From: Carpediemonas membranifera BICM
Lineage: Eukaryota; Protista; Fornicata
Length of the DNA: 64,000 bases
Direction: 5' to 3'
NCBI GenBank assembly: GCA_019828565.1
Contig: JAHDYR010000004.1
Span: 62,001-126,000 of the forward strand
The notes beneath the pieces are model-generated. The model searched no databases, was not told the origin of the DNA, and saw only the letters and a program-made list of their open reading frames with translations. Of the stretch, positions 5,590-56,852 are shown in pieces; within the stretch, counting starts at the first letter, position 1; each line of letters begins with the position of its first letter. Made by a program: the position numbers and the translations under genes.

Positions 5590-6374
5590 TAGCGTATCCT
5601 TGATGGTATAAGCGATAACCTAATGGCGAAACGACCGCTCAAGCTCGATCAGCGATCAAAAGTGCGTAAACTGCACAATGACACGGCGTTTAAAGCAGAC
5701 AGAGCTGTGGTGAACTCTGAGTTTCGATCATTTACACCACCACAAGTCTCAACGCCACCACTAACTTCCATGTCTAACTCCGATTCGAGGTCTGGCCAGC
5801 GTTGGCTGAGTCGGCCGCCGCACCCAACCCAATACCCACTATCTGTGTTGTAGAGGCGCATAGGGGGAGGCGATTGACCGTCAAGAAGACGGCGAAGTAT
5901 GATGGGGTGCTTTTGTCTTCTGACAGTTGCTTCTGGCCGTTCGCGGGACCCTTACCTTATCCCATCACGTCCACCACCCTTCTTAAACATAGACTATGAC
6001 TAGTTGGGCACGCAGTTCATGAGTGTCCTTAAATGGCCCTGATTCTGGGTCTACCAGACTGGTGCAGTTTTGGACTAAACAGAACTAAACAATCAGTTTT
6101 AACAAAACAACGCGAGACTCACATACCCGCCAGATGATTGATTACGAACAGCACTGCACGAATGCTCATGCATTGCCTTTGAACTGCATCGTTTTAAGAA
6201 GGGCGGTTGCTGCCATTCCCTCTCCTGCCACTCCTGTGCCTTTTCCCGCCGTAGCCGCCACTGCAAGGACGGAGATCGAACCTGCCGAGCAGTCATTGAA
6301 GAGCCGCATCGCGAAGCAACGGTGCGTCCTCCCCGAGAATCTCACGCAGCAGCGAGTGCAGAGCAGTAGAGGAC

Positions 6375-9545: not shown

Positions 9546-9551
9546 TGCGGC

Positions 9552-24426: not shown

Positions 24427-27400
24427 ATGATCAGAGACGCCACGACGCGCATCTTCGCCCCCAGAGGACAAGCTCCACCTCAAGCCCATCGGATCCACGC
24501 CCCTCACTGCTACAGACCTCACCCGCGTCCTCGACCACCTCTCGACATTGGACGGGCTGCCCAGAGAGTTCAGCATGAGGCTGACTGAGCCCGACCTCAC
24601 TGTCACGATGAGGTATGGCAAGCTGGCCGCCGACAAGCCCGACAGCGCCGTCGACGATCTGCTCGCTGCCTGGCATGCGAGGATGGCTGAGTGCATCCAG
24701 ACGATGAAGGGTCACACCGATGACGTGTTCAGCGTCGCCTTCCTCCCCTGACGGCACCATGGTCACCGGGTCATCAGATGGGACGACCAAGCTGTGGGAC
24801 AAGCGCGGCGTGTGCAAGATGACGATGGAGCATGGCGGGGCTGTTCGGTGCATCGCCGTCTCCCCGGACGGGTCGACCATCGCCTCGGGCGGGACTGACC
24901 GCAAGATCAAGCTGTGGAGGCGCGGCAGACTCGTCAAGACGCTCGAGGGACACACCGATATTGTGAACAGCCTCGCCTTCTCCCGAGACGGCAAGACGCT
25001 GGTGTCCGGATCCGATGACAAGACAGTCAGGTCGTGGGACGTCGCCACCGGCGTGTGCAGGACGATGGAAGGGCACTCAGATTGGGTTCTCTCCGTCGCC
25101 ATCTCCCCCCGACGGCAAAGACCATCGTCTCTGGATCAAAGGACAAGACAATCAAGGTGTGGATCGCTGAGTCGGGCAGACTCGAGCAGACTCTGGAGGG
25201 CCACACGAATTCTGTCGCCGCCGTCGCCATCTCCCCGGACGGCGCTCTGCTGGCCTCTGGGTCTGGCGACAAGACCATCAGACTCTGGGACACCAGGACC
25301 TGGGAGTGCGTCGCCGTCCTCAGGGGGCACGCGAGCTTTGTCTTCAGCGTCGCCTTCTCGCCCGACGGCAGGACCCTCGCCTCTGGGTCTTGGGACAACA
25401 CCACCAAGCTCTGGAGCATCGACAGCGGCGAGTGCTTCGAGACGCTCTGGGGTCATGACAGAGATGTGAACAGCGTCGCCTTCTCCCCAGACGGGTCGAC
25501 CCTGCTCTCTGGATCTGACGACAAAACCGCCAAGCAGTGGTCCCTTGGTCGCTCTCCCGAGCTCACCGCCCTCGACCAGACCCTCGCCCAGCCTGTCCCG
25601 GCCGCGGCCATCGTCCGCCTCGAGGGCACCGTCGCCGACCTCACCCGCGTCCTCGACCACCTCTCGACACGGCCCAGAGAGTTCAGCATGAGGCTGACTG
25701 AGCCCGACCTCACTGTCACGATGAGGTATGGCAAGCTGGCCGCCGACAAGCCCGACAGCGCCGTCGACGATCTGCTCGCTGCCTGGCATGCGAGGATGGC
25801 TGAGTGCATCCAGACGATGAAGGGTCACACCGCTGAGGTGCTCAGCGTCGCCTTCCTCCCTGACGGCACCATGGTCACTGGGTCATGGGATGGGACGACC
25901 AAGCTGTGGGACAAGCGCGGCGTGTGCACGACGATGGAGCATGGCGGGAAGGTTCGGTGCATCGCCGTCTCCCCGGACGGGTCGACCATCGCCTCGGGCG
26001 GTGATGACCACAAGATCAAGCTGTGGGACCAGACCGGCAGACTCGTCAAGACGCTCGAGGGGCACACCAATAATGTGTGGAGCCTCGCCTTCTCCCGAGA
26101 CGGCAAGACGCTGGTGTCCGGATCCTGGGACAAGACAGTCAGGTCGTGGGACGTCGCCACCGGCGCGTGCAGGACGATGGAAGGGCACTCAGATTTGGTG
26201 CTCTCCGTCGCCATCTCCCCCGACGGCAAGACCATCGTCTCTGGATCAAGGGATAAGACGATCAAGGTGTGGATCGCTGAGTCGGGCAGACTCTGGAGGG
26301 CCACACGAATTCTGTCTTCTCCGTCGCCATCTCTCCGGACGGCGCTCTGCTGGCCTCTGGGTCTGGCGACAAGACCATCAGACTCTGGGACACCAGGACC
26401 TGGGAGTGCGTCGCCGTCCTCAGGGGGCACACGCACTATGTCAACAGCGTCGCCTTCTCGCCCGACGGCAGGACCCTCGCCTCTGGGTCTGATGACAACA
26501 CCATCAAGCTCTGGAGCATCGACAGCGGCGAGTGCTTCGAGACGCTCAGGGATCATGCCGATAAGGTGTGGAGCGTCGCCTTCTCCCCGGACGGGTCGAC
26601 CCTGCTCTCTGGATCTGACGACAAAACCGCCAAGCAGTGGTCACTTGGTCGCTCTCCCGAGCTCACCGCCCTCGCCCAGACCCTCGCCCAGCCTGTCCCG
26701 GCCGCGGCCATCGTCCGCCTCGAGGGCACCGTCGCCGACCTCACCCGCGTCCTCGACCACCTCTCGACGCGGCCCCGAGAGTTCAGCATGAGGCTGACTG
26801 AGCCCGACCTCACTGTCACGATGAGGTATGGCAAGCTGGCCGCCGACAAGCCCGACAGCGCCGTCGACGATCTGCTCGCTGCCTGGCATGCGAGGATGGC
26901 TGAGTGCATCCAGACGATGAAGGGTCACACCGCTGAGGTGCTCAGCGTCGCCTTCCTCCCTGACGGCACCATGGTCACTGGGTCATGGGATGGGACGACC
27001 AAGCTGTGGGACAAGCGCGGCGCCTGCAAGATGACGATGGAGCATGGTGGGAAGGTTCGGTGCATCGCCGTCTCCCCGGACGGGTCGACCATCGCCTCGG
27101 GCGGTGATGACCACAAGATCAAGCTGTGGGACCAGTCCGGCAGACTCGTCAAGACGCTCGAGGGACACACAAATAATGTGTGGAGCCTCGCCTTCTCCCC
27201 AGACGGCAAGACGCTGGTGTCCGGATCCGATGACAAGACAGTCAGGTCGTGGGACGTCGCCACCGGCGTGTGCAGGACGATGGAAGGGCACTCAGATTTG
27301 GTGCTCTCCGTCGCCATCTCCCCTGACGGCAAGACCATCGTCTCTGGATCAAAGGACAAGACAATCAAGGTGTGGGTCGCTGAGTCGGGCAGACTCGAGC

Positions 27401-29965
27401 AGACTCTGGAGGGCCACACGAATTCTGTCTTCTCCGTCGCCATCTCCCCGGACGGCGCTCTGCTGGCCTCTGGGTCGTGGGACAGCACCATCAGACTCTG
27501 GGACACCAGGACCTGGGAGTGCGTCGCCGTCCTCAGGGGGCACACGCACTTTGTCTTCAGCGTCGCCTTCTCGCCCGACGGCAGGACCCTCGCCTCTGGG
27601 TCTGGTGACAACACCAAGCTCTGGAGCATCGCTAGCGGCGAGTGCTTCGCTACGCTCAGGGGTCATGCCGATAAGGTGTGGAGCGTCGCCTTCTCCCCAG
27701 ACGGGTCGACCCTGCTCTCTGGATCTGACGACAAAACCGCCAAGCAGTGGTCCCTTGGTCGCTCTCCCGAGCTCACCGCCCTCGACCAGACCCTCGCCGA
27801 GCCTGTCCCGGCCGCGGCCATCGTCCGCCTCGAGGGCACCGTCGCCGACCTCACCCGCGTCCTCGACCACCTCTCGGCGCGGCCCAGAGAGTTCAGCATG
27901 AGGCTGACTGAGCCCGACCTCACTGTCACGATGAGGTATGGCAAGCTGGCCGCCGACAAGCCCGACAGCGCCATCGACGATCTGCTCGCTGCCTGGAATG
28001 CGAGGATGGCTGAGTGCATCCACACGATGAAGGGTCACACCAACTGGGTGTTCAGCGTCGCCTTCCTCCCCTGACGGCGCCATGGTCACTGGGTCATGGG
28101 ATGGGACGACCAAGCTGTGGGACAAGCGCGGCGTGTGCAAGACGACGATGGAGCATGGCGGGTCTGTTCGGTGCATCGCCGTCTCCCCGGACGGGTCGAC
28201 CATCGCCTCGGGCGGTGATGACCACAAGATCAAGCTGTGGGACCAGACCGGCAGACTCGTCAAGACGCTCGAGGGGCACACCAATGATGTGAGAAGCGTC
28301 GCTTTCTCCCGAGACGGCAAGACGCTGGTGTCCGGATCCGATGACAAGACAGTCAGGACGTGGGACGTCGCCACCGGCGAGTGCAGGACGATGGAAGGGC
28401 ACTCCCATTTGGTGCTCTCCGTCGCCATCTCCCCTGACGGCAAGACCATCGTCTCTGGATCAAAGGACAAGACAATCAAGGTGTGGGTCGCTGAGTCGGG
28501 CAGACTCGAGCAGACTCTGGAGGGCCACACGAATTCTGTCTTCTCCGTCGCCATCTCCCCGGACGGCGCTCTGCTGGCCTCTGGGTCTGGCGACAACACC
28601 ATCAGACTCTGGGACACCAGGACCTGGGAGTGCGTCGCCGTCCTCAGGGGGCACGCGAGTTCTAGCAGTGTCGCCTTCTCGCCCGACGGCAGGACCCTCG
28701 CCTCTGGGTCTGGTGACAACACCAAGCTCTGGAGCATCGCTAGCGGCGAGTGCTTCGAGACGCTCAGGGGCCATGACGATTGGGTCCGCTGCGTCGCCTT
28801 CTCCCCGGACGGGTCGACCCTGCTCTCTGGATCTGACGACAAAACCGCCAAGTAGTGGTCCCTTGGTCGCTCTCCCGAGCTCACCGCCCTCGACCAGACC
28901 CTCGCCGAGCCTGTCCCGGCCGCGGCCATCGTCCGCCTCGAGGGCACCGTCGCCGACCTCACCCGCGTCCTCGACCACCTCTCGGCGCGGCCCCGAGAGT
29001 TCAGCATGAGGCTGACTGAGCCCGACCTCACTGTCACGATGAGGTATGGCAAGCTGGCCGCCGACAAGCCCGACAGCGCCGTCGACGCCATGCTCGCTGC
29101 CTGGCATGCGAGGATGGCTGAGTGCATCCACACGATGAAGGGTCACACCGATGACGTGACCAGCGTAGCCTTCCTCCCTGACGGCGCCATGGTCACTGGG
29201 TCATGGGATGGGACGACCAAGCTGTGGGACAAGCGCGGCGTGTGCACGACGATGGAGCATGGCGGGTCTGTTCGGTGCATCGCCGTCTCCCCGGACGGGT
29301 CGACCATCGCCTCGGGCGGTGATGACCGCAAGATCAAGCTGTGGAGGCGCGGCAGACTCGTCAAGACGCTCGAGGGGCACACCAGGGATGTGAGAAGCGT
29401 CGCCTTCTCCCCAGACGGCAAGACGCTGGTGTCCGGATCCGATGACAAGACAGTCAGGTCGTGGGACGTCGCCACCGGCGTGTGCAGGACGATGGAAGGG
29501 CACTCAGATTTGGTGCTCTCCGTCGCCATCTCCCCTGACGGCAAGACCATCGTCTCTGGATCAAAGGACAAGACAATCAAGGTGTGGGACGCTGAGTCGG
29601 GCAGACTCGAGCAGACTCTGGAGGGCCACACGAGTTATCTCGCCACAGTCGCCATCTCCCCGGACGGCGCTCTGCTGGCCTCTGGGTCGTGGGACAGCAC
29701 CATCAGACTCTGGGACACCAGGACCTGGGAGTGCGTCGCCGTCCTCAGGGGGCACACGCACTTTGTCTTCAGCGTCGCCTTCTCGCCCGACGGCAGGACC
29801 CTCGCCTCTGGGTCTGGTGACAACACCATCAAGTTCTGGAGCATCGACAGCGGCGAGTGCTTCAAAACGCTCAGAGGTCACACAGATTGGGCGAACAGTG
29901 TCGTCTTCTCTCCAGACGGGTCGACCCTGCTCTCTGGGTCAAAGGACAACACCGCCAAGCAGTGG
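24427..29965 (+). repeat. Tandem array of five ~1.1-kb WD40-propeller + linker cassettes
   Basis: MKGH starts at 24704, 25817, 26917, 28027 and 29135. Frame is broken by homopolymer indels, a 10-bp deletion near 26290 and a TAG at 28853-28855. Confidence 0.9.
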
Positions 29966-32900
29966 CCCTCCATCAAGTCGCCAGAGATCGAGGAGGTCTG
30001 CGCCCAACCCACACTCGGCGCCGACATCCGCCTGCCGTCCGACGACTCGCCCCTCTACCTCGCCGACCTGGCGCGGGTCGTCATCCACATCCTCGCCACG
30101 GGCCTGCCCCGCTCCTTCAAGATGAGGCTGGCCTTCCCTCCCGCGACAATCACGTTGGACAAGAACAGGTATTTCAAGACGAGCGCCGATAATTCTGAGC
30201 TGACAGAGCTGATCAAATCTTTCAACACCCACATATCTCAGCGTATGGCCGAGAAGATCCTCCGCGAGCTTTCAGCTGTCGTGAATACGATCACCGCCGA
30301 CTCGGCTCCGGAGTCCCTGCGCGCCTTAGTGCGTCGTCTCGACCAATACAAGAGCACCGCGAATGCAGCTGGGGATGGGCCCCGTTCGTCTGCCGTGCGT
30401 GACCCTGTTCTGCGGAGGCACCTCGCCGTGGCCGCGTTTGCCCAAGACTTCCTTGACCTCGTCGACGGGGGCATGAGCCCAAAGATCGCTGTCACCGCTC
30501 TGAAACACTCCGACGGTGCCACACCCGCCGACTATCACGACGCTTCGGAGCTCGTGCAGACCGCCATCGACGCGTTCATCGCCCAGCCGACGTCCCAGCA
30601 CGCCGAGCGTATTCCCACGAGCTACACCCACGCCGGCCTGATTCGCGCGCTGGCGTACACGAAGGAGTACATGGAGGACGCCGAGGAGGAGCTCGCCGAG
30701 TACCTGGCGGCCGTCCCCGAGCCTGACCCCCTCGCCATCCTCGTCGAGGCCCGGATCCGCGGGTCAGCCCCCCTCACGCGGTTCTTCTGCGAGACATTCC
30801 CGCAGCTGGCAGAGAGATTCGCGACGGCCGATGAGCGGTCAACCGACGACAACGAAGCCGAGCCTCAGCCGCAGCCGGAGTCAGAGGACGACCGCATCCA
30901 GCAGGCCTGGGAGCAGTACGGCATGGCCAGCGCCGCGATGGACGAGCTGCTAGCGATGAGCGGCATGCGCGCGCTGAAGAGGGAGTGCATCGACATCGCT
31001 CAGCAGATCCGCGTCCGCAACGACCCGCGCACTGCGCAGCTCTACGCCGCCACGCCGATGCAGCTCAACTTCATCCTCAGCGGCAACCCTGGCACGGGCA
31101 AGAGCACGTGCGCTAAGCTGATCCACCGCTTCCTGGCGGACATCGGCGCTCGCGATGACACGTTCACCGAGCGCAACGGCGGCACCCTCGCCGACACGTC
31201 GCCGCTGGACATCACGAAGGAGTTGGACAGCCTCTTCCCGGCCGGCTTCAGGGGCACCGTCTTCATCGACGAGGCCTACCAGCTGAACCCCGCCCAGAAG
31301 AAGTCGGGCAAGTCAGTCATGGACCGCATCCTGGACGTGGCCGAGACGCGCCGCGGCGACGTCACGATCATCCTGGCAGGCTACAAGGACGACATGAAGG
31401 ACCTGCTGGCGACGAACCCGGGTCTGAACAGCCGCTTCTCGCGCCAGTTCGTGCTCGAGGACTTCGACAAGGACACGCTGCAGGAGATGTTCACCCAGCT
31501 GGCGACCAAGCAGGGCTGGTCCCTCGCCCCGGCAGTTGCCGAGATCGCTGGCCGTCGCCTCGAGCGCTTCAAGTCGCGCGACACCTTCGCCAACGGCCGC
31601 ACCGTCCGCAACATGTTCAGCCAGGCCATCGAGGCTGCGGCCAAGCGCCTCATCTTGGGCGGCGAGCACATGCTGCTGCCCGAGGACATCCTCGGACCAG
31701 CGCCATCGGCCGACTCGAACCCCGAGCTGCGCCGTCTCCTGGCCGAGCTGGACGGCTTGACCGGGCTTGGCGAGGTGAAGGAGGCTGTCCGGGGTCTGCT
31801 TCAGACAGCGAAGGTCAACTACGACAACGAGCTCCACCTCCGCCCGCTGCACGCCTTCGCACTCAACCGCCTCTTCTTCGGAAACCCTGGGACGGGCAAG
31901 ACGACCGTCGCACGCCTGTACGGCCAGATCTTGAAGCACACGGGCCTGCTCAGCAGCGGCGAGGTCATCGAGAAGCGGCCCAGCGACCTGGTCGGCGACG
32001 CCGTGGGGCAGAGCCGGTCGAGAACGAAGGCCGCGATCGAGGAGGCGCGCGGCAAGGTGCTGCTCATCGACGAGTGCTACTCCCTCGACGACGGCGTGTA
32101 CGGCAAGGAGGCGCTTGACACGATCGTTGAGCGCGTGCACAACAAGCCCGGCGACGACATCGCGGTGCTCATGCTCGGCTACGAGGAGCCCATCCGCCGC
32201 ATGCTGCGCAACCAGAACGCGGGGCTGGCGAGCCGCTTCGACCCCGAGAGCGCGTTCATCTTTGCCGACTTCGACGACACCGCGCTCGAGGCCATCCTGA
32301 AGCACGCCATCGCCGAAAGCGGCCTCGCGTGCCGCAGAGCTGTCGTTGTCAACGCGATACAGCTGCTGGCCAAGGAGCGCGTCAAGCCCAACTTTGGCAA
32401 CGCCCGCGCTGTGGTCAACCTCGTGAACAAGGCGAAGCGCCACATGATCCAGCGCGATCCAACCTCGCGAAAGATCGCAGTTGCTGATCTCACGCAGGCT
32501 GACGACGGCAAGGACCCGTTCGAGCCGCTCGACGGCCTGTACAAGGTCAACCACATCCGGCAGAGGCTCGAGGACCTCGTCCGTATCAAGCAGGGCATGG
32601 AGCGGAACGGCAAGTCAGCCGCCTCAATGCTGGTCCGCAACTACGTCTTCTCGGGCTCCCCGGGCACAGGCAAGACGACCATCGCGCGGTGCATGGCCAA
32701 GATCCTCTACCGCCTGGGTGTGCTGGCAACCGACACGTGCAAGGAGGTCGTCGCACGCGACATGATGGCAGGCTACGTGGGGCAGACGCCGGGCCGAGTC
32801 AAGGAGCTGATGGACGAGGCGGTCGGCGGCGTCTTCTTCGTGGACGAGGCTTACGGCCTTGGAGAGGGCATGTTCGGCAAGGAGGCGATCGAGACGATGC

Positions 32901-33630
32901 TCAGCGAGATGACGTCGGACAAGCACAAGGGCAAGACCGTCGTCGTCCTGGCGGGCTACCGCGCCGATCTCGACCGCATGATGGACGTCAACGCCGGCGT
33001 CCGCTCGCGCTTCACCGAGCCGATCGACTTCCCCGACTGGTCGGCGGCCGACTGCACCAGCTTCATCGCGGGCAAGCTCGAGGGGGAGCACCTCAAGTTC
33101 GGCTCAAACGAGCAGGCCGCTCTGCGCAGCCACATCGAGGCCGTTGTTGGCCGGGCTTCCTGGGCCAACGCACGAGACGCCAACACGATCTTCGAGGACC
33201 TGCTACGCCAGCAGGCGATCCGCGCCGCTTCGGTCGTCGAGGCTGAACCTTCGATCGCGGCCGATGACGTCGACGCCGCCATGGTCAAGTGCAAGCGGAA
33301 CCACCCTGAGAGCGCCAGCCTGCCGCATCTCGTCGAGGAGCAGCCAGTCGCCCTCGCCACCGACAGCGAGGTCCAGCCCAGACGCGAGACGCGGCAGGAC
33401 GTCAGAGTTGAGCAAGTCGAGGAAGTCGACGAGACTGTCGATGTGGTGACTCGCGTTGAGCGCGACGAGGGCGTAACCGACGAGATCTGGGAGGAGCTGG
33501 AGCTGGCCAAGCGCGAGGAGCAGCGCCGTCGGGAGGAGGAGGAGCGGCGTCTGCGAGAGATCGAGGAACAACTCAAGCGTGAGAAAGAGGAGAAGGCGCG
33601 CCGCGAGCTCGAGCGCCGGAAACGGGAGGC
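29006..33630 (+). pseudogene. WD40-linker-triple AAA fusion gene (copy 2), interrupted in its coiled coil by an LTR retrotransposon
   Basis: One continuous frame from WD40 through three AAA domains; nearly identical to ~8620-12250; host sequence resumes at 43845. Confidence 0.88.
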
Positions 33631-33687
33631 TGAGAGCCAGTGCAGTTTATGTAAACAGATCTACCTGCGCAAGCCAACAATGGCACA
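33631..33687 (+). repeat. 5' LTR of outer element (57 bp)
   Basis: tgagagccag...caatggcaca, identical to 43784-43840. Confidence 0.95.
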
Positions 33688-33856
33688 ATATCGATATTCT
33701 GCTTCTACAGAATCACACAGTGGTCTATCCGTGATAGACGTCTCTTCCCTCACAACGGGGTACGAGATCTGGTTACGGGAAGTCGGTAACGTCAAAAGAC
33801 CCCGTTCTTTCCCCCCACGCATTCACGGCAAAGACCCTCGAGCTTCTACAAGCCAC

Positions 33857-34367
33857 ATGGCGGCCCACCTCCACGTTCCCGACCTTCGAGTCGTTCTGGG
33901 ACTCCCTTATCCCTGACGTGGTCTCGCAGGCACAACACGCCAAGCAAGAACCTGACAGACACGCCACGTCGTGCCGCGCAAGATACCGCGCGATCATCGA
34001 CGCTCTGCAGGACGATCTCTTCTTGCTCTGTGCTGCAGCCGCCAACACCTATAAGGACAGCCCGCTTCTCGACCCGGCGATGCGCCGGATGCAGGCTGTT
34101 TACGACCGCGCCGAGGCCGAGCTGAACGATAAGCTCGCCAGCCTCTGCACGGCCAGCCACGACCGCCACGAGGCGGACCCGGATGCGACCCTCACCTTCG
34201 CGACGCTAACGAACCCCCTGGACGACAAACCGGCCCGATCGGCCGCGGATGTCGCGAGAATCGTCAACTCTCTCCCGTCAGCGGCAACGGCCGCCCCCTC
34301 CGCCCCCGTGTCCGTGCGTGACCAGCTTCGCGCCGAGGCCAGGACCATCCTGCCTCACCTGTACCTT
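33857..34367 (+). CDS. gag: Outer element gag-like ORF, 5' part; resumes at 40317 after the nested insertion
   Basis: ATG 33857 with a probable 1-nt indel near 33911. The frame ...PHLYL joins TLMPTLDR (40317) in frame across the CCTT TSD. Confidence 0.6.
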
Positions 34368-34489
34368 TGTGGTTCAATGGGTGTTGAACTTTTACTGAGG
34401 AGAAGACTCGACACAAGGGTGTCGAGGAGAAACTCCTTGACTATTAAATATAACGTAAATCTGTGTAACTTTGGGTAGGACCCACAACA
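34368..34489 (-). repeat. 3' LTR of inner element (122 bp)
   Basis: Identical to 40191-40312; contains hairpins ctcgacac-aagg-gtgtcgag and aggag-aaa-ctcct. Confidence 0.95.
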
Positions 34490-35353
34490 CTGCCCCTCCA
34501 TGCCTGGTATAGGCATGACAGAGAGACTTGACGTCAGCATTTCACCAAAGGCCTGGACGGTGCCACCCGACCGCCAACGGTGACTCATAGGGCTGGCAAC
34601 CCCATGGCCTGAGTGCTTTCGCATCTAGCTGAACGAAATCAAAATGATGGTATCATGATCTAACTGCGGTACCGCTATGTGAGCTCTGTTTCAAAAATGG
34701 TGAAACGTGACGGAAAGGCTTACCACTGCCCCTCCACGGCCTTCCTAGGCCGTCTTCACAAACCTTATACGTGTTATATGCCATTCCATGTAATTCGAAG
34801 GCCAAGAACGATTGCTCTAGCAAACACTGCCAATGCTGAGCCCTTATCGCTCATAATCACACAGACGCCGAAAAACGTACTTAGAAGCTCCAATTCGGCT
34901 CCGTTGAGGAGTTCTGAGGCTTCTAATTTTCTGCGTCCAACTGTACTTGAATAACAACATCAAACTGACCGGAAGGAGCACTAGGAAGCTCCTAATGCCT
35001 TATTACCGACAATAAATGCATGCTTGAAGACTAAGATGACCTTGTTAGTTGTTCCTTCGACCGTTTCCGAGAAATGTGCAGGATATGTCGCCGTCAACTC
35101 ATTTGATGTCGGACAACACAGCCGTAGAGGCCGTTCTGAAGGAAATTCGTGCCAAAAATCACCGAACTTGGTGATGACGATCTGGCTAGGCCACTTATTG
35201 TTGCCCATACGTCCGTTTGTCGTTCCCTTCGCGCTCAGAAGTATCGTGGACGCAAGCGCATGGTCACCGACAATCTGTAAGTAACAAACATCAACCGTGA
35301 GGTTATATAGTCACCGCGTGCAAGCCTCAGAACGCATCACTCGCACCCTGACG

Positions 35354-36190
35354 ATGACGACTCTGATGCCCCACGACATCAAGGCCGAGGTTGCCCGACG
35401 CCTGGAAGGTTACACCAACTCCATCGAGCTGCCGCTCCAGCGAATCTTTGACGCTATTGAGCAAGGTCGTCTGAACGACGCAGCCGTAGTGCAGGACGTG
35501 AAGCTGACCCAGCAGGTCTTGGCTCTCGTGGCTCATTGCCAGGTCGCGCTTGCCGGTGTGAGGGCCCACCTCAAGCTCGGCAGGAAGCGCTTGTCCGATG
35601 GCGACATCGTGTCGGCCGCGATCCGGGGCCGCGACATCACGCTGGGTGGATCTTCACCCGGTAATGGTCACTACTCTGCAGCTCTCGTGGCGGCTGTGCG
35701 GACTGCCGGCGGGGTCAAGTCGGACACTACAGCGCGCGGATATCTTAACCGCCTGTTGGTCCTCGTCCTCGCACCGGACTACTTCCGTGTCGCTGTCTAC
35801 GGCATCAGCCGGCGCATCCCGGCTCCCAACGACTTCTGGGCAACCCTGGTCAGCCGCTTGTGCCACGACGGCTACCTGCCCGCCATTGGCGATGAGGCTC
35901 ACTGGGAGCCGCTTCAGGTCTCTGATCCGGACCGCTACTACACTGTCACGTGCGTAGTCCGTCACGAGTATCTGAAGACGACTTGTGGTCCCGGGTCTTT
36001 TGTGTTGATCCTGCAGTATGACGGATACTCGGGACTCAGCATCGTGTCCCTCAACGCTGATCTCTGCCTTGTCCGGTGTGTGCGAGAGTACTTGGCTGAG
36101 AACGCCCTTGAGCGCCACGCTGACCCGACTTGGTTGGTCGAGCTGACGGACACGGAGGAGACGGAAGACGAGGAATCTAGCTCTGAATAA
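35354..36190 (+). CDS. Antisense accessory ORF of the inner element (278 aa), chromodomain-like C-terminus plus acidic tail
   Basis: Intact ORF between pol and the 3' LTR, converging on the pol stop with a 42-bp gap; pattern YYTVTCVVRH...LILQYDGY...VREYL. Confidence 0.7.
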   Translation: MTTLMPHDIKAEVARRLEGYTNSIELPLQRIFDAIEQGRLNDAAVVQDVKLTQQVLALVAHCQVALAGVRAHLKLGRKRLSDGDIVSAAIRGRDITLGGSSPGNGHYSAALVAAVRTAGGVKSDTTARGYLNRLLVLVLAPDYFRVAVYGISRRIPAPNDFWATLVSRLCHDGYLPAIGDEAHWEPLQVSDPDRYYTVTCVVRHEYLKTTCGPGSFVLILQYDGYSGLSIVSLNADLCLVRCVREYLAENALERHADPTWLVELTDTEETEDEESSSE

Positions 36191-36232
36191 ATCGTTTGTT
36201 CCTCGAGGATACAGCTTCGATGTTGAGAAGTT

Positions 36233-39200
36233 TTACAGACCGTCACGCTTGGCTTGGTCAGACTTCAAATATGTATCGAGGGCTTCCAAATCTTTGACGT
36301 GCGAATAAGGTTCGAATGAAGCCTCTGAATCCTCGAATCCGACCCAGTGTACGAGGTACTCGCGCCTTGACTTGGGGCCCGAGCCTCTAGAGCGTGAGAT
36401 GCGCTCGACATGCCACTCATCGACGGAAGCGGCTGCGAGGTCATAGATCTGTTGCTCCGAGAGCTTGCCTGGGTCAAATCTTCGCACACGTGCCGCGTCT
36501 ACCTTGATAGTTGGACCGTCCGCTGACTGACTGAGGTCTTGTACCTCATATGCGACGACAACACCATCACGTTTGACGGCTGCGACACGCCTCATGGGGC
36601 CGCGCCAGCCCGGGGCTAGCTTGCTCGGTGGTCTTGGGTAGTATTTGACCAGCACGAAACGGCTCAATATCTCGCTTCTCGATGAGGTTGCCTTTGCGAG
36701 AGCGTCTTCGCGCATGGCTCTAATCCTTGCTTTGGCGAGTTGGATGGCGGCATCGGCTGCGGCTAGCTTCGACTGTGGCGGACCAGCCGAGGCGGCATCC
36801 GTGATATAGATCGATGACGGTATTGATAAATTGGCGCCAAACATGATCTCGGCCGGAGTCAACCGGGTCGGGATCCTGGGCATTGAGTTGACCAAGAATT
36901 GGGCGACTGGTAGGTGTGCTACCCAATCGTTATTCCTTAACTCCAGCTTCCTGGCTCTGAGGATGCGTTCGACCTCCTTGTTCGCGCGTTCGACGACACC
37001 GTTGCTCTGGGGATGGTATGCTGTCGTTATGTGGACGTCGAACCCCATCTCTTCGGAGAGGCGTTTGAACAGAGCGTTTTTGAACTCTGAGCCCCCATCC
37101 GATTGGACGACTTCGGGGCATCCGTATCGTAGAATCCAGGTGTTGACCAATGCGTTGGCTGCGTCTTTGGCTGAGGTGCTGTTGACCGGGACTAGCTCTG
37201 TCCAGCGGGAGCACATGTCGATCATTACTGTCACGTAGGACAGGCCGTTGACCGTCGGTAGCGGACCCATGGTGTCAATGGCCACACGCCGGAACGGGAG
37301 GTCTACAGCTGTATGCAGGCCGTCGGGTGTATCAACAGGAGGGCGGGCCAAGACTTGGCACTCTGGACACGCGGTAATCACGTCGTCTACGACTTGACGG
37401 GAGACAGACAAACCGTCGGCCCTAAGTTGCTCGGTTGTCATCCGGCGAGACAGATGAGCTCCTGCTGTGAGATGAGCGCGGGATACCTGATCCCTCGACG
37501 CCTGTTGCATGGAGAATACTCTCGAGAGACCGTCGGCTCCACCGTTGTCCAGACCGGCGATGTGCTGTAGGGTGAAATCTAAATCGGCGATCGAATCAGC
37601 CCACCGGCGGACCTTGGCGTTGGTGGACCGGTACATATAGAGTAGGTTCCGGTGATCCGTGAGAATAGTAAAGCTCTCCCAGCACAGGAACTTGCGCCAT
37701 CGTTGTAACGCTGCCACGATAGCGTAGGCTTCTTTCTCACCGGTACACCAGCGTGACTGGACGTCGTTGAACGCACGCGACATATAGCAAACTGGTCGGC
37801 CCTCTTGGAGTAAGACTGCTCCGTACCCGACATCGGATGCGTCAGTCATGACGGTGTGAGGCTTAGTCGCGTCGAACATGGCTAGAGCGTCGGCCGAACA
37901 TAAAGCTTGTTTCAGATCGTCCAGCGACTTCTGAAGAACGTCTCGAGGGGGTCTGCCGACCGGACATGGCGTCTAGCAGAGGCTTAGCTCGGACCGCGAA
38001 GTTGGGTATGTAATCGCGGAAATAGTTGAGGAATCCGTTGAGACCCTGCATGCCCTTCGTGGATGAAGACAGCTTGAGGTTCGCGATATCTTCGGTCCGC
38101 TGGGGTGAGATCTTCACGCTGCCTTGGGATATGATCCACCCGAGGAACTCGACCTCTTGCCGACCGAACTGGCACTTATCTCGGCCGAGCTGAAGGTTAA
38201 GCTTGTCAACGCGTTGCATGACTTTTTCGAGGTTTCCCAGGTACTCGTCCTCATCCGCACCCATGACGATGATGTCATCAATGTATATGACACAGGCGGA
38301 GCCCACCAGACCCTTGAACCCGTCTTCCATCGCCCTCTGGAAGTACGCTCCGGCGTTACGTAAGCCGAAGGGCATCCGTGTATATTGGTATTGACCAAAA
38401 ACAGTACGGAAGGCGGTTAGGTGACGGCACCGTTCAGTAAGAGGGATCTGATGGTATCCTGCTGACAAGTCTAGGGTAGCGAACACAGACTTTCCGGACA
38501 GTTGAGTGAGAACTTCGTCTATGCGAGGGATGGGGTAGTCGAATGGTTCCGTTAGTTGATTGATCTCGCGGAAGTCGACGACAAAACGCGTCTTTCCCCC
38601 CTTCTTTGGAACTATGATGGTAGGGCTCGCGTATTGAGACTGGCATGCCTCGATGTAGCGCTTTGCCAGGAGCGTATTAATGTGCTCTTGAATGATCGGG
38701 ACTTTCGGCGGGGGAACATAGTACGGCCGAATGTGTACGACTCTGTCGCCCTTGAGGACCAAATCATACGGTTCGAGCCGGCTTGGCTCGGTACGGTCCA
38801 CGAATGTCCGGGCGTAACGCTTGAGGATGTCGGCCTGCCTCTGAGAAAAGGAAGAGGACATGGCTCTGGCTTGCGCGACGTACTTCTCGAATGTAGGTGG
38901 TTCGTCGCTGGCTGCGAGCTCGCTGGTAGGCTCAGACAACGAAGGGAGAAGGCCGATCTCCACCATCTGAGGGTAACCCAGGCATACATCGAAAGCGGTC
39001 GACAGGACGTAGGCCTTAATAGTGATAGAGCATCCGCGCGGAGTGAATGGCGAGGGCGCTAAGACGAGGCGGAAGGATACCTGACCCTCGGCCTCTCTGA
39101 CGCCGCCCACTGTCTCGATAAGTGTCTTCTCGTGTGAGATCCACTTCACTGCCTTGCCGTAGCAGAGCTTGGGGTCAATGGTTGCGCAGTCAGCGCCCGA

Positions 39201-40169
39201 GTCGAACAGGACGGACACGACTTGCTTAAGAATGCTAGCCTTGACGGTGGGAAGGACACTCTGACGGGAACCGAGAGAAAACACACAACGAGCTGAATTT
39301 ACCTCAGAACGGCAGAATTCAGCTCGGTGGCCCGGCTTCTGGCACTTGGAACAGGTTGTCTTCGGAGCAGGGCATCGGCGAGCGGAGTGACCGACCTTAC
39401 CGCAGTTGAAGCACACGAATGGCTTCTTCTCGTGCTTGGGCTTGTCGATCGGCTTGCCTTTTGAGGGGGCTACGTTCGTGCGGTCAGGCTCGCGTCGATG
39501 AGGGTTCTTCGGACCGCTCCCCGTGTGCCGTGTATGGGAGGGCGTGGTGTTGGTACGCTGTGAGTCGGAGACCCCCGCAGCGCCGAAGGAAGCGATCATC
39601 TCCTTGGACTCCTTGAGGTCGCGTGACATGACGAGGACATCAGCCATTGCGTCCTTGAGATCCTTGCGCTCCGTTGATTCTCTGACTCGATACATGATGC
39701 GACTGTTGTTGGGGAACTTGAAGCAGCGGCTGTACGTCTCCTTCAAGACGTCCTCGGGATCTTCGGGTTGAACGAGCTTCAAGAGCAGATTGAATCGGCG
39801 GTTCACTCGAGCAACCTCATCAGGCTCGAAGGACTTGGCGGGGACTCGGAAGAGCTGTAGACGCATGCTCGGGCGAGAAGGTCGAAGGGCAGCACCGAGG
39901 CGCTTGAGGACTCGTTCATCTTGGGCTGCGACACGACGTTTCTTACGGAGCTTCGCGGAGAGCAGGAGAGGAGTGTCTTCAACCTCTTCGTCGTCGTTAA
40001 GGCCTGCTAGCTCTGCTATGCTAGGCTCGATGAGGTCAATAACATCATCGCGGCCGCCTAAGGCGCGATGATCGTGGAGGTTATCCGCAAAGTCCAAAAG
40101 AGCGTCCATGGAGGACTTCTTCAGGAGAGGCGGATTCTTCTTCAGGCTTCTGTAAGTTTCCGTACCCAT
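36233..40169 (-). CDS. gag-pol: Inner element Gag-Pol (2 CCHC knuckles, protease, RT, RNase H, integrase, chromodomain); one +1 indel at 37947-37951
   Basis: CFNCGKVGHSARRC, CSKCQKPGHRAEFC, LFDSGA, YIDD, TDASD, TDHRNL, H..H..CPEC, IDTMG/SDGG/VVER, EWHVERI..YLVHWVGF. Removing one C gives TPRDVLQKSLDDLKQAL in frame. Confidence 0.93.
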
Positions 40170-40190
40170 ATGTTTTGGTAGTACTAGTAC

Positions 40191-40312
40191 TGTGGTTCAA
40201 TGGGTGTTGAACTTTTACTGAGGAGAAGACTCGACACAAGGGTGTCGAGGAGAAACTCCTTGACTATTAAATATAACGTAAATCTGTGTAACTTTGGGTA
40301 GGACCCACAACA
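40191..40312 (-). repeat. 5' LTR of inner element (122 bp)
   Basis: Ends 21 bp before the gag ATG (40169). Confidence 0.95.
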
Positions 40313-40316
40313 CCTT

Positions 40317-43300
40317 ACCCTGATGCCAACACTCGACCGCGGTGCACGCCTCAAGGCCATCACAAGCAAGGGCACCCAACTGTACGGCCAGAACGCGGCC
40401 CACCGCCTTAACACTCTGCGCCTGCAGAAGGCGTGCGACGGGTACAACCCCGTCGTCGAGGCCGATGGCTACCATAAGATCCCCGACAGCGCCCTCCGCG
40501 CTGCGGTCCGGTCTGTCGCCCTCAAGGGATACGACGACGACGCGATCCCGCTATACGAGGCGCTGATCGAGCGGGATTCGGACGGCAACTGGCGTCCCGC
40601 CCGCGACTGCATAGACGCCCTCTCGACCCTCGAGACCGACCATCTCGGCCAGATCGTCGTCCCCAATGGCGCGAGTCGGACCTCCGCCTGTTCGCCGCGG
40701 ACGACCGCGTTATCTCCGTGGGCAAGATCGCCACCATGTCCATCACACTCCCTGGCATGGATGGCAAAACCGTCACGCTCGACTGGGACGTCCACATGAT
40801 CACAGGCACCAGCGACAGGATGCTGATCGGCAAGGACCTCCTCAGGCACATCGGCTACGTCCTCAACGACCGCCTACTGATACTCCCGTCCGAGAAGCCG
40901 GATGATAAGGACGATCTAGAAGAGCACAACATGATCGACGCCGACGTCTTCGAAGCGGCGTCAACCTCGGACTCGAAGCATTCGCTCGCCGTCACGATCC
41001 CGGACGACCACGGCACCGAGTTCGCCAACAAGGTCCGAAGCATCGTCGAGGAGTTCGATGAGGTGTTCGACCCGGCTCTCCCGCCCGAAGGCAGCAAACT
41101 ACAGCCTCACAAGATCGAACTCACACGCGATTTTCACCTCAAGTGCCGTCCTCGACAGCTTGTCGGAGAGGCTGGCTCAGCCGCCCTCTCCGAGATCGAG
41201 AAGATGAAGAAGCTCGGCATCATACGAGACAGCCAGTCCGAGCACGCCAGCCGCCACACGATGGCAACCAAGAAGAACGGCGAACCCCGCTTCTGCGTCG
41301 CATTCAACGATCTTAACGACGCCACGAAGGACGACGCCTTTCCCCTCCCCGATCTGAGGGACCTGCCCCACGAAGCCGGCGGATGCTCTTACTTTGCATC
41401 ACTCGATCTCCGGTCCGGATACTGGCAGCAGCTGATGGAGCCGGCCAGCATCCCCCTTACCTCGTTCGTAGTCCCCGGGCACCAATTCGAGTTCCTCAGG
41501 GTCCCGTTTGGACTTAAGAACGCCCCCTCCAAGTTTCAACGAGCGATGGAGGCCGTGCTAGATGGCATCCCCGGCCACCGGGTCTACGTGGATGACATAT
41601 TCCTCTACGCACGGACCGAAGAAGGATTCCTCAACACCCTGAGACTCACCCTCCAGAGAGCCAAGGACAACCGCCTGCGCCTCCGTGCGGACAAATGTAC
41701 CATCGGCGCCGCCGAAGTGGAGGTCTGCGGATTCATCATCAACAGCTCCGGCCGCTCGGTGAGCCCAGGCCGCGTCGCCGCGCTGAAGGAGCTGCCCGCC
41801 CCCACCACCGTCACAGAGCTCAGACGCACGATGGGCAAGTTTAACCACCTCGCAAACTACCTCCCGCAACTCAGCTCAGCCACAGCCCCCCTCAACGCCC
41901 TCCTCAAGGGGTCACCCAAGAAGCTAGACAAGCTCCCTTGGACTGAGGAACACGACAAGGCATTCGCGGCTCTGGAAGGAGCTGTGCACCGACAACAAGG
42001 CATTGGCACTACCCAACCTGACCTGCAAGTGGACACTTGAGACAGACGCGTCCACAATCGCAGCCGGCGGAGTGCTGTGGCAACACGAGGGCGACACGAA
42101 GAAACCCCTCGCGTACTTCTCAAAGACGTTCACAGAGACCCAACGCCGCTGGGCGACGGTCGAGCAAGAGCTCTACGCAGTCATATACTGCATCACCCGG
42201 CCAGAGTTTAGCCAGATTCTCAAGCTGAAGCCATTCACCGTACTCACAGATCACAAGAACATCGTGTGGATGATTCGCAAGGCTGAGGAAGGGACGCGCA
42301 AGCTCACGCGATGGAGACTCATCCTATCCGAGTACCCCTTCGACATCATGCATATCGCAGGGACAAATAACGTCGTCGCGGACGCCCTCTCCCGCCCCAG
42401 CGGCGCGGCGATCAGCGAAATCGCCAGCAGCACCCACCGCTTCGACATTCAGCAGGCCCACGCTGGAGCCAACGGCCATGCTTCGATCAAACAAACGATC
42501 GCCCATCTCAAGGAAGCCGGCAAGACCTGGTCTTCCATGAACTCAGACGTCGCGGAGCACGTCGCGACTTGCCCAGTCTGCCAGAAGCTCAAATCCCACC
42601 CCATCGCCAAGGCCCAGTGGCATACGACCCAGAAGACCCGCCCATTCGAGGCGGTGCAGATAGACACGCTCGGCCCGCTTCCAAAGACGAATGGCCTCGC
42701 TCACGTGATCGTGTTCATCGACGTCTTCAGCAAGTTCACTGTGCTCAAGCCGGTTGCGTCAACCTCGGCAGAAGAAGCCGCCGACGCGATGCTCCAGGTG
42801 TGGTCGCTCTTCGGCGCACCCAGCCTGATCCAGACAGACCAGGGAAGTCAGTTCAAGAACTCAACCATCGCCGCTCTCAACAAGAAGATCAGCCTGAACC
42901 ACAGGTTCTCCACGGCGTACCACCCACAGAGTAACGGCGTTGTCGAGAGAGTCAATGGGACCATCATGCGCAGACTGCGCGCCCTGCTACTAGACTCAGA
43001 AACGACCGACTGGCCCGCACTTATCCCAATCGTGCAACACATTATCAACACTTCGACACACTCGACTACCGGCTTCACGCCGTTCGAGCTGCTTTTTCGG
43101 ACACACGTCCGCGCTCACGGCCCTCCCGGAGTCACGCATCATCAGCGCCGCCAAGGCGACGCAAGACACACCTACCATCCAGGCCATTAACGCATTCCAC
43201 ACCGACATACAGGCCATGCACGACGCAGCCCGCGCGAAGATCGCCGCATACGAGCGTCACAAGGCCGCACAAACCCAACCGGCGGACAACTTCGACTGGA

Positions 43301-43755
43301 AACTCGAACGCCTAGTGCTCCTGAGATATCCTCACAAGGCCCCATCCAAGATTCTGCCTCCAGTCCGCGGCCCGCTACAACTCCTCAGGGAAGGGAAGAG
43401 CCCCAACACATTCGTCCTCCGTGACCTCGTCACCAAGTCCGAGCTGCTCGTCCACCAGGACCGCCTCATTCGCTTCGACCCAGGCACAGCAGACCTCAAG
43501 ACACTCGAGCGCATCGCCGCATACGAACAAGACGAACAACAAGTCTCCGCCATCGTCGGCCACCGCGAGCGCAACCGACGCCTCGAGCTCCTCGTCCACT
43601 GGGAAGGCCTAGAAGACTCCGAGGACTCGTACATTCCGTATAACGCATATTACGACCGCCTCGCCGCCCTGGATGACTACCTACGCCTCAACCCAGGTCT
43701 CACGCCCCTCTTCGCACGTTACAAGCGGAAGTTCCGGGGCAATGGCCGCCGTTAG
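40317..43755 (+). CDS. pol: Outer element gag 3' part and pol (protease-like, RT, RNase H, integrase, chromodomain) in four frameshifted pieces
   Basis: MLIGKDLL, LDLRSGYWQ, PFGLKNAP, YVDD, TDAS, TDHKNI, H..H..CPVC, IDTLG/TDQG/VVER, RGP, LLVHWEGLEDSEDSY. Confidence 0.9.
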
Positions 43756-43783
43756 CTGGCTAGCTTCGCCTTGAGGAGGGAAG

Positions 43784-43840
43784 TGAGAGCCAGTGCAGTT
43801 TATGTAAACAGATCTACCTGCGCAAGCCAACAATGGCACA
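43784..43840 (+). repeat. 3' LTR of outer element (57 bp)
   Basis: Identical to 33631-33687, preceded by PPT and followed by TSD. Confidence 0.95.
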
Positions 43841-43844
43841 AGGC

Positions 43845-44112
43845 TGAGGAGAGGCGCCGGAAAGAAGAGGAGGCTCGTCGTCTGCGGGAGATCGAGGAAC
43901 AACTCAAGCGTGAGAAAGAGGAGAAGTCGCGCCGTGAGCTCGAGCGCCAGCAGCGGGAGGCCGAGGAGAGGCGCCGGAAGGAGGCGGCCATTCAGCAGAG
44001 ACTGAGGCAGATCGGGCGGTGCCCCGTTGGATTCGAGTGGATCAAGGTCGGCGGCGGGTACCGGTGTGCTGGCGGCAGCCACTTCGCGAGCGACGCCGAA
44101 GTGTTTGTCTGA
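43845..44112 (+). pseudogene. Detached C-terminus (coiled coil + CPVGFEW..CAGGSH) of the WD40-AAA gene copy 2
   Basis: Matches the 3' end of 9552-12410 plus extra coiled-coil sequence. Confidence 0.88.
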
Positions 44113-50193: not shown

Positions 50194-53100
50194 GTGCGAT
50201 CTGGCCGAGGAAGGAGGCTCATCATTTGATTGGCGGCATCACCCCGCAGTGGGCGGCGAGTCACGCCATCTCGACGATGGCTGCCACCAGAGACACCTGG
50301 ACAAACACGAACTTTTGGGACGTCACGATGTCGGACTGCTCAAAGTCGCAAACACCATCCAAATTCAGCGAGATGAATCAGCGACGATGCAGAAAAAGTT
50401 CGTTCCACGCCTCCCACTCTACGCAGCTGGTACGTTCCCAATCCCGTTGGTGCAGAGATGCAGCCCGCGGCGAGTTCAAGAGCGCTTACGCAGTAGATCT
50501 GAGCAATGGTGCGTCCTCCCCGAGAATCTCACGCAGCAGCGAGTGCAGAGCAGTAGAGGACATGATCAGCGACGCCACGACGCGCATCTTCGCCCCAGAT
50601 AGCAAAGCTCCACCTCAATCCCATCGGATCCTCGCCCCTCACCGCTACAGACCTCACCCCGCGTCCTCGACCACCTCTCGACGCGGCCCAGAGGAGTTCA
50701 GCATGAGGCTGACTGAGCCCGACCTCACTGTCACGATGAGGTATGGCAAGCTGGCCGCCGACAAGCCCGACAGCGCCGTCGACGACCTGCTCGCTGCCTG
50801 GAATGCGAGGGATGGCTGGAGTGCATCCAGACGATGAAGGGTCACACCAACTGGGTGATCAGCGTCGCCTTCCTCCCCGACGGCGCCATGGTCACTGGGT
50901 CAGCGGGATGGGACGACCAAGCTGTGGGACAAGCGGCGTGCAAGACGACGATGAAGCATAGCGGGGGCTGTTCGGTGCATCGCCGTCTCCCCGGACGGGT
51001 CAACCATCGCATCGGGCGGGACTGACCGCAAGATCAAGCTGTGGGAGGCGCGGCAGACTCCGTCAAGACGCCTCGAGGGGCACACCAGGGATGTGAGAAG
51101 CGTCGGTTTCTCCCTCAGACGGCAAAGACGCTGGTGTCCGGATCATATGACAACACAGTCAGGACGTGGGACGTCGCCACCGGCGTGTGCAGGACGATGG
51201 AAGGGCACTCAGATTTTGGTGCTCTCCGTCGCCATCTCCCCTGACGGCAAGACCATCGTCTCTGGATCAAAGGACAAGACAATCAAGGTGTGGGTCGCTG
51301 AGTCGGGCAGACTCTGAGCAGACTCTGGAGGGCCACACGAATTCTGTCGCCGCCGTCGCCATCTCCCCGAACGGCGCTCTGCTGGCCTCTGGGTCTGGCG
51401 ACCACACCATCAGACTCCTGGGACACCAGGACCCGGGAGTGCGTCGCCGTCCCTCAGGGGGCACGCGAGCTTTGTCCGCAGCGTCGCCTTCTCGCCCGAC
51501 GGCAGGACCCTCGCCTCTGGGTCTTGGGACAACACCATCAAGCTCTGGAGCATCGCTAGCGGCGAGTGCTTCGAGACGCTCAGGGCCATGACGATTGGGT
51601 CCGCTGCGTCGCCTTCTCCCCGGACGGGTCGACCCTGCTCTCTGGATCTGACGACAAAAACCGCCAAGTAGTGGTTCCTTGGTCGCTCTCCCGAGCTCAC
51701 CGCCTCGACTAGACTCCTCGCCGAGCCTGTCCCGGCCGCGGCCATCGTCCGCCTCGAGGGCACCGTCGCCGACCTCACCCGCGTCCTCGACCACCTCTCG
51801 GCGCGGCCCCGAGAGTTCAGCATGAGGCTGACTGAGCCCGACCTCACTGTCACGATGAGGTATGGCAAGCTGGCTGCCGACAAGCCCGACAGCGCCGTCG
51901 ACGATCTGCTCGCTGCCTGGCATGCGAGGATGGCTGAGTGCATCCAGACGATGAAGGGTCACACCGATGACGTGCTCAGAGTCGCCTTCCTCCCCGACGG
52001 CGCCATGGTCACTGGGTCAGTGGGATGGGACGACTCAAGCTGTAGGGCAAGCGCGGCGTGTGCACGACGACGATGGAGCATGGCGGGAAGTTTTGTGCAT
52101 CGCCGTCTCCCCGGACGGGTCGACCATCGCCTCGGGCGGTGATGACCGCAAGATCAAGCTGTGGGACCAGACCGGCAGACTCGTCAAGACGCTCGAGGGG
52201 CACACCGATGTTGTGAACAGCCTCGCCTTCTCCCGAGACGGCAAGACGCTGGTGTCCGGATCCGATGACAAGACAGTCAGGACGTGGGACGTCGCCACCG
52301 GCGCGTGCAGGACGATGGAAGGGCACTCCAGATTGGGTGCTCTCCGTCGCCATCTCCCCCGACGGCAAAGACCATCGTCTCTGGATCGTCTGATGACACG
52401 ATCAAGGTGTGGGACGCTGAGTCGGGCAGACTCCGAGCAGACTCTGGAGGGCCACACGAGTTATCTCACCACCGTCGCCATCTCCCCGGACGGCAAGACC
52501 CTCGCCTCTGGGTCTTGGGACAACACCACTCGCTCTGGAGCATCGACAGCGGCGAGTGCTTCGAGACGCTCAGGGGTCATGCCGATAAGGTGTGGAGCGT
52601 CGCATTCTCCCCAGACGGGTCGACCCTGCTCTCTGGATCTTCCGGACAAGACCGTCAAGCAGTGGCATATCAAGCACTCGCCAGAGATCGAGGAGGTCTG
52701 CGCCCGACCCACACTCGGCGCCGACATCCGCCTGCCGTCCGACGACTCGCTCCTCTACTCGCCGACCTGGCGCGGGTCGTCATCCACATCTCGCCACGGG
52801 CCTGCCCCGCTCTTTTGAGATGAGGCTGGCCCCACCCCGAATGCATACCGTCTCTCTTGGTCCTACCGGATTCACGTCGAGCTAAGCCGCCGATGTTGAA
52901 GCCCCTTCTCGAGCTACTCAACCGCCACCTCGTGATGCAGAAACTGTTGACTGAAACACGTGCTCTCGACGCCGCTGACGAAGCGCTGTACGTGGCCGCG
53001 GCTCTGAGCGACGCCAAGCGCCTTGCTGGCTGCCGCCGGCTCCGCACGCGGAGTAGCATCGAGGCGAGTGCTCGCGCTGAGGACCGACCTCGCCCGCCTC

Positions 53101-54910: not shown

Positions 54911-55282
54911 GTAAAGAGATTGGCTCAGCATTTACACCCGCCCCGACCCATCGCCAGGCCTCCTCCGTCACTCATAAGCTTTTGGAACACGTTGAAGCGC
55001 TTCTGAGCCATCAACTCGAAGGCCACAGCAAATGTGCGCCTGTCAACCGGGACTCGCCACCCAAGCACACCACCACATGGTCGCATTGAGTCATCGCTTC
55101 CATCGGCTGTCAACAGGTACGATCGGTGTCATGACAACACAGTACACTGTTTTGGACCATCATTCAGGAGCCGAGGTGGAGATGTCGGGCCGGCACTCAG
55201 AGATAGCGCCCTCGCTGCGTCGGCGCTGCATGCCACCGTTGCTGACTCGGCCGAGTTGACACGAAGAACGGGCGCGTCGACG

Positions 55283-56704: not shown

Positions 56705-56852
56705 TGTTTATACGTGTGTATATGTGCAAAGAGATGTCAATACCGGCTTGGGGATACGCTCAATCGACTCCCAGTACAAGTCGACTCCGCCCTTAGCATC
56801 GCCGTCGACGCCAGCGGCTCCTGTTCAGACAGCAGCGAGTACTACCTGTGAC

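Follow-up and report, generated by a model that had tools for sequence, protein, structure and literature searches.

Based on our analysis of a 64,000-nt stretch of the Carpediemonas membranifera BICM genome (hereafter the window), we report a short palindrome at the priming position of an LTR retrotransposon. Judged from sequence, this palindrome marks a clade of Ty3/Gypsy elements in which its structure is kept while its letters vary, and it is a variant of a site known from fungal Ty1/Copia elements. We propose, at about even odds (a probability near 0.5), that the palindrome represents a duplex between two element RNAs, which would be cut to free a primer that replaces the tRNA. The element that carries it, here called the inner element, is a chromodomain Ty3/Gypsy retrotransposon at 34368-40312 on the minus strand, with twin, identical LTRs of 122 nt. 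Its features are as follows.

34364..34367, plus strand: target-site duplication CCTT (AAGG on the minus strand), 4 bp; second copy at 40313-40316
34368..34489, minus strand: 3' LTR, identical to 40191-40312
34490..34499, minus strand: polypurine tract GGAGGGGCAG, adjoining the 3' LTR
35285..36190, plus strand: antisense extra ORF, 301 codons from stop to stop, between pol and the 3' LTR
36233..37972, minus strand: RNase H-integrase-chromodomain frame (Pfam RT_RNaseH, rve, Chromo)
37863..40169, minus strand: Gag (zinc knuckle)-protease-RT frame (Pfam zf-CCHC, RVT_1), in which the RT runs into a frameshift
40170..40190, minus strand: leader from the 5' LTR to the gag ATG, 21 nt, without TGG
40180..40191, no strand: perfect 12-nt palindrome AGTACTAGTACT, composed of the last LTR A, a 10-nt core and a closing T
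40191..40312, minus strand: 5' LTR, 122 nt, TG...CA, identical to 34368-34489

The order on the minus strand is ...TTGAACCACA, GTACTAGTAC, TACCAAAACAT, ATG, and AGTACTAGTACT occupies the primer-binding position, starting on the final A of the 5' LTR. The ends of the element were set without use of the palindrome, from the identical LTRs, the 4-bp target duplication and the polypurine tract; the palindrome's start on the last LTR base therefore follows from ends that were fixed independently of it. The choice of the ATG at 40169 as the gag start is backed by L001, the closest relative with DNA: its homologous Gag (E 4e-22) is similar from residue 6 on, against residue 10 in the inner element. 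The letters at 39840-40200 are the same in a contig of the public run X1, which may derive from the source culture and so checks the sequence only. The end of a run contig at 40200 was not taken as an RNA start, because contig ends in X1 and X2, two small-share sets whose pieces are nearly identical, are uninformative on RNA starts.

The Pfam domain order Gag-PR-RT-RH-IN with a C-terminal chromodomain places the inner element in Ty3/Gypsy. The protease motif LFDSGAD and the acidic motifs of RNase H can be read in its translation, and the closest solved structure to its RT is the Ty3 RT 4ol8 (E 3.5e-52). Among named RTs, those closest to it belong to Carpediemonas membranifera (two, at 52% and 42%) and to Aduncisulcus paluster (42%); together with a cilia gene in the window, they point to a fornicate flagellate, free-living and related to Giardia, as the likely host. 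With its pol frameshift, the copy may be non-autonomous as assembled. At the antisense ORF, run contigs contain a 34-nt GT..AG skip (35277-35310), so a transcript from 35277-36190 on the plus strand is likely spliced. A Pfam search with this ORF gave no match; at the corresponding location in L001 (278-952, minus strand) there is an antisense ORF with weak similarity to it (12/28 residues, E 0.002). Run contigs matching 34441-35055 and 34482-35138 include the 3' region of the inner element and a related family, which has the same polypurine tract and LTR start and a different LTR body; further members are thus present in this host.

The inner element lies within the gag region of a second, outer Gypsy element, and this outer element has in turn disrupted the end of a WD40-AAA host gene.

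33631..33687, plus strand: 5' LTR of the outer element, 57 nt; target duplication AGGC
33687..33698, no strand: palindrome AATATCGATATT of the outer element, in the register of the inner one
43784..43840: 3' LTR of the outer element, 57 nt

Because the LTRs are identical within each element, both insertions appear to be recent. The outer LTRs are unusually short, and the start of the outer gag is indistinct. The two RTs are 32% identical and the DNAs unrelated. AGTAAA or TGTAAA, which we take to resemble the Giardia poly(A) signal, stands some 20-35 nt ahead of the LTR end in both elements (40209-40214, 33650-33655) and at or near several stop codons (36232, 12413). Elsewhere, the window holds a cilia gene and arrays of WD40 units of about 1.1 kb (6300-12410, 24500-33916, 50600-64000), with several near-identical copies and with some units fused to three AAA domains; the many single-base indels in these arrays suggest assembly errors or decay.

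The initial annotation had described a perfect 12-mer at 40180-40191, in a register common to both elements, and a leader lacking TGG, and both descriptions were borne out by re-reading and by the LTR ends. A tRNA 3'-end site (TGG 0-5 nt from the LTR) is absent: the first TGG is at +23 in the inner element, where it falls in the start codon region, and at +34 in the outer one. No tRNA genes were found in the window, and an Rfam search of 33500-44000 with E up to 1 gave 0 matches. Self-priming of the Tf1/sushi type is recognised by at least 10 nt of the 5' LTR being complementary to the sequence just after the LTR, as described in the available text of PMC6317226. In the inner 5' LTR, the longest such partner is 3 nt (4 with G-U); anywhere in the element, the best is 5 nt (8 with G-U), and in the relatives it is at most 6 nt within 400 nt upstream. 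Cleavage of the Tf1 RNA needs flanking duplexes, according to the accessible part of bioRxiv 2022.12.06.519325, and a search for comparable ones found none. A second arm of the GalEa type (9 nt, within 60 nt) has 3 mismatches at best in the inner element and 4 in the outer, and at least 2 in all scored relatives except the AT-rich L030. There is no strong local hairpin at the palindrome (40140-40200, z 0.53). A z of -2.72 for 40110-40250 was set aside, as it does not come from the palindrome; the longest stem there is an upstream LTR hairpin. An 8-bp hairpin, CTCGACAC-CCTT-GTGTCGAG, lies within the inner LTR (40229-40248, minus strand).

The shortness of the 21-nt leader, which had been read as leaving little room for a primer-binding site (PBS) and a packaging signal, proved uninformative, since PBSs can be short, the Ty1 packaging signal lies downstream, and leader length within the clade varies between 16 and 153 nt. 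In Ty1, the PBS is 10 nt (RNA nt 94-104) and the packaging signals lie downstream at nt 237-380, as given in the portion of PMC4974528 available to us.

Perfect 12-mer palindromes start at 12 of 63,988 window positions, or 1.9e-4 per given base, and one of at least 12 nt starts within any 9-nt span with a window frequency of 0.17%. Local dinucleotide shuffles gave a CA-anchored palindrome of at least 12 nt in 1/300 for each of the two elements. Together with the blind clade test described below, the window frequency and the shuffles exclude a chance origin. The initial annotation had also held that a second case makes chance unlikely. The verdict against chance stands, while the outer element is not an independent case: it belongs to the same RT clade as the inner one, and the two point to shared ancestry instead of independent origin.

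Three scans yielded 188 loci, 174 of them with an RT match of at least 180 aa. Viral-contig scans with a single RT or a two-row alignment found no relative, and viral and genome scans with alignment A3 returned 108 loci, 2 of them in the clade (L085, L128); L085 and L032 are one and the same element. FastTree on 196 rows placed the inner element, the outer element and 27 loci within one group of 38 (support 0.86). In an IQ-TREE analysis of 57 chosen rows, midpoint-rooted and composed without Tf1 or Skipper, 27 clade rows formed one side of a branch (100/99), with the outer RT as a long branch inside the palindrome clade. The clade RTs stand apart from the branch with the sampled fungal and algal chromodomain elements (Aspergillus, Puccinia, Closterium, Haematococcus). 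Of the best 120 matches in a search from one clade protein, nearly all were environmental sequences without a name (51-61% identical to it), which suggests that the clade is large and little described. Loci L109-L188 are eukaryote-type Gypsy RTs on contigs filed as prokaryote genomes, most likely through binning contamination.

In the blind test, a script called the gag start and then sought, within 250 nt upstream, a palindrome of at least 12 nt at the A of a CA. Such a palindrome was present in 13/17 usable loci in the clade vs 1/89 outside it (Fisher p 2e-12, an overstated value because kin are not independent). Loci without a gag start or enough upstream DNA dropped out (10/27 clade loci, 58/147 others). 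The four clade misses comprise L057, which has a 10-mer; L026 and L052, where the palindrome is farther upstream than the called start; and L006, whose contig appears to start inside gag. By eye, a perfect palindrome was seen in 16/17 distinct clade loci with a leader; the one in L018 is imperfect, and the calls for L026 and L036 are the least secure. Four Gypsy loci outside the clade (L097; L084, L117, L126) carry CA-anchored palindromes (12-20 nt) upstream of the RT, which could be further origins or chance.

The clade palindromes are 10-18 nt long. For relatives, the 3' end of the LTR was placed by means of the polypurine tract, a TG start and short inverted repeats at the LTR termini, and in no case by a pair of complete LTRs (by script at 9 loci, by eye at L001); the LTR start was not found for L002, L026, L030, L036, L047 and L050. 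The longest palindrome within 60 nt begins at the final LTR A or 1-2 bases earlier in 15/17 scored elements (L080 left out). AT or GT follows the CA at 16/17 scored sites, the exception being L036, which has TA and a longer palindrome 42 nt upstream. Three of the 17 sites reach farther into the LTR, which is about chance level, and among the clade leaders we found no post-CA palindrome that lacked the closing T.

Twelve elements with a 10-nt core contain 10 distinct cores; as the compared rows were chosen as palindromic, their symmetry is by construction, and the unbiased evidence consists of the blind-test prevalence and the changes between sisters. L001, whose RT is 56-60% identical to that of the inner element, shows a polypurine tract, a 76-nt LTR, then A GTATTAATAC T, with the ATG 16 nt on. 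Compared with L001 (RT 60% identical), the inner element has a paired change at core positions 4 and 7. A paired change at the central positions 5 and 6 separates L015 from L050 (77%), and L009 and L052 (89%) differ by paired changes at positions 3, 4, 7 and 8, as compared by the CA anchor, the alignment having put their palindromes out of register. Both the blind test and the paired changes indicate that the palindrome is conserved among relatives as a structure.

We suggest a plausible mechanism for priming at this site. Two element RNAs would pair over 12 bp through the palindrome. In the geometry that we favour, positions -1 to +10 of one RNA would lie paired to +1 to +11 of its partner. 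One strand would be cut after +10, likely by the element's own RNase H, and the freed 3' end would prime on the other RNA, the first base added copying the last LTR A. Such a cut and such a first base would account for the A at the start of the palindrome and the T at its end. The resulting primer duplex would be 11 bp and abut the LTR, and the palindrome would be restored when plus-strand synthesis copies the 11 bases of the primer. Were a single base to mutate, the outcome would be a heteroduplex, and its repair would yield either the original sequence or a double change in a matched pair; perfect Watson-Crick symmetry at the site would thereby persist. The 12-bp RNA duplex could double as a dimer contact. 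Since cutting one RNA would part its 5' end from its body, the cycle would need the other RNA intact.

The position of the palindrome agrees with this scheme. The LTR end is set by the start of minus-strand synthesis, the U5 boundary being the first base copied, and a site anchored at that boundary is therefore most simply a priming site. The primer of Tf1 is 11 nt and is cut by RNase H. Tf1, on which Levin reportedly published in 1996 and which bioRxiv 2022.12.06.519325 also treats, offers a precedent for cleaving an RNA duplex to yield a primer. The predicted duplex energies are -16.0 (inner), -10.9 (outer) and -11.4 (L001) kcal/mol, and many clade cores are AT-rich, with weak duplexes. Co-folding of the 5' regions favoured the dimer by 9-16 kcal/mol, and the 12-mers folded alone gave no hairpin.

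We also considered a purely structural role, in which the palindrome does no more than serve as a contact for dimerisation or packaging, as PAL1/PAL2 do in Ty1 or a dimer initiation site does in retroviruses, and another primer pairs nearby. The palindromes of the Ty1 5' UTR are required for dimers and mobility, according to the accessible text of PMC6844567, and the duplex energies and central paired changes would fit a contact of this kind equally well. It has no need, however, to start on the last LTR base, where nearly all scored elements start or come within 1-2 bases, and no alternative primer site is visible. We regard this explanation as unlikely. To the same degree, we doubt that a fold-back in cis, with a 4-bp stem and a 4-nt loop, is cut and primes, or that the symmetry is a by-product of DNA fold-back copying. 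A 4-bp stem does appear at the palindrome in some longer folds, such as that of the L001 monomer, and a copying by-product would account for the perfect symmetry too. But the isolated 12-mers form no hairpin and the GalEa-type second arm is absent. Moreover, the central four bases (positions 4-7), which would be the hairpin loop and free to vary, stay complementary and change in pairs, which favours an RNA-RNA duplex over a hairpin.

Less probable still is a host primer, either a piece of a tRNA or some other small RNA, to which the site would pair with its symmetry being incidental. Half-tRNA primers without TGG are known in copia, Ty5, Osser and Bianca, as far as the available parts of PMC5371799 and PMC6317226 describe them. 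Ten cores that change in pairs, across palindromes of 10-18 nt, could not fit one tRNA, however, and the symmetry would be left without a reason. A further point against this reading is that Neumann et al. saw half-tRNA primers in plants only in Ty1/copia lineages, according to PMC6317226. Least probable are recognition of the palindrome as DNA by a dimeric protein (transcription factor or integrase) and plain chance: a DNA site would be expected to show perfect Watson-Crick symmetry without G-U type variants, as is seen here, but a sequence-specific protein would not permit letters to vary freely under a kept symmetry, and chance fails against the window frequency, the shuffles and the blind test.

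The nearest counterpart to this palindrome is the Conserved Hairpin Site (CHSeq1/CHSeq2) of the fungal GalEa Ty1/Copia elements, described by Donnart et al. 2017 (PMC5445492). In the available text of that paper, GalEa elements have no PBS, and the 9-nt sequence after the 5' LTR is palindromic with the final A of the LTR, usually with a second arm, although a few families list no CHSeq2 (PMC5445492). Its authors proposed the site in a PBS role and discussed dimer initiation sites, and in the text available they found that no known model fits (PMC5445492). The palindrome of the inner element likewise includes the final A of the 5' LTR and is in the same register. The inner element, however, is a Ty3/Gypsy element with a chromodomain and with its integrase after RNase H, whereas the GalEa elements are Copia, with the integrase before RT. 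Three further differences emerge against the part of the GalEa description available to us: the clade palindromes are 10-18 nt (12 typical) vs 10 nt, their letters vary with paired changes vs CTGATCAGT/CTAATTAGT, and a CHSeq2-like second arm (one mismatch) is absent from the inner element.

Tf1 and sushi elements are similar in being chromodomain Ty3/Gypsy elements without a tRNA site, for which a primer from their own RNA by cleavage is proposed in the accessible texts (PMC4600332, PMC6317226, bioRxiv 2022.12.06.519325). In Tf1, however, the 5' end of the RNA pairs with a non-palindromic PBS in a three-duplex fold, as the last of these describes, whereas the complement in the inner LTR is limited to the 3 nt given above. 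The Ty1 PAL1/PAL2 sequences are likewise self-complementary near the RNA 5' end and pair two genomes, but Ty1 retains its tRNA-iMet PBS, which the PALs do not replace, on the available account (PMC6844567). The dictyostelid Skipper elements are also protist chromoviruses, from which the TGG site has been lost and in which a Tf1-type complement is absent; in contrast, the accessible text reports a polypyrimidine stretch at the site instead of a palindrome (PMC5006619). In bivalve TRIMs, the inner domain contains palindromes and inverted repeats that are unexplained, as far as the available text of PMC6934838 describes, and the available part of bioRxiv 2026.05.21.726589 mentions neither a PBS nor palindromes. 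Within our coverage, which was judged mostly from titles and abstracts and left most subscription papers and Repbase reports outside, we found no published Gypsy case of a palindromic primer site.

The mode of priming is a defining trait of LTR elements, and the GalEa site has been without a fitting model since its description, as far as the available text of PMC5445492 indicates. The occurrence of a GalEa-type site in Gypsy, without a second arm and with central paired changes, reduces the candidate models to two, a duplex between molecules and a copying step; sister elements supply natural compensatory pairs. LTR finders that require a tRNA site would under-call the clade. More tentatively, and at somewhat less than an even chance, a large and mostly unnamed clade of protist chromodomain Ty3/Gypsy elements may prime reciprocally in trans, cutting a palindromic dimer whose copying rebuilds and self-corrects the palindrome; this route would be distinct from tRNA, half-tRNA and Tf1 fold-back priming, and would have been reached separately in GalEa Copia and in Gypsy. 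If priming in trans is true, dimerisation would be a precondition for reverse transcription in these elements, and no host RNA would be required.
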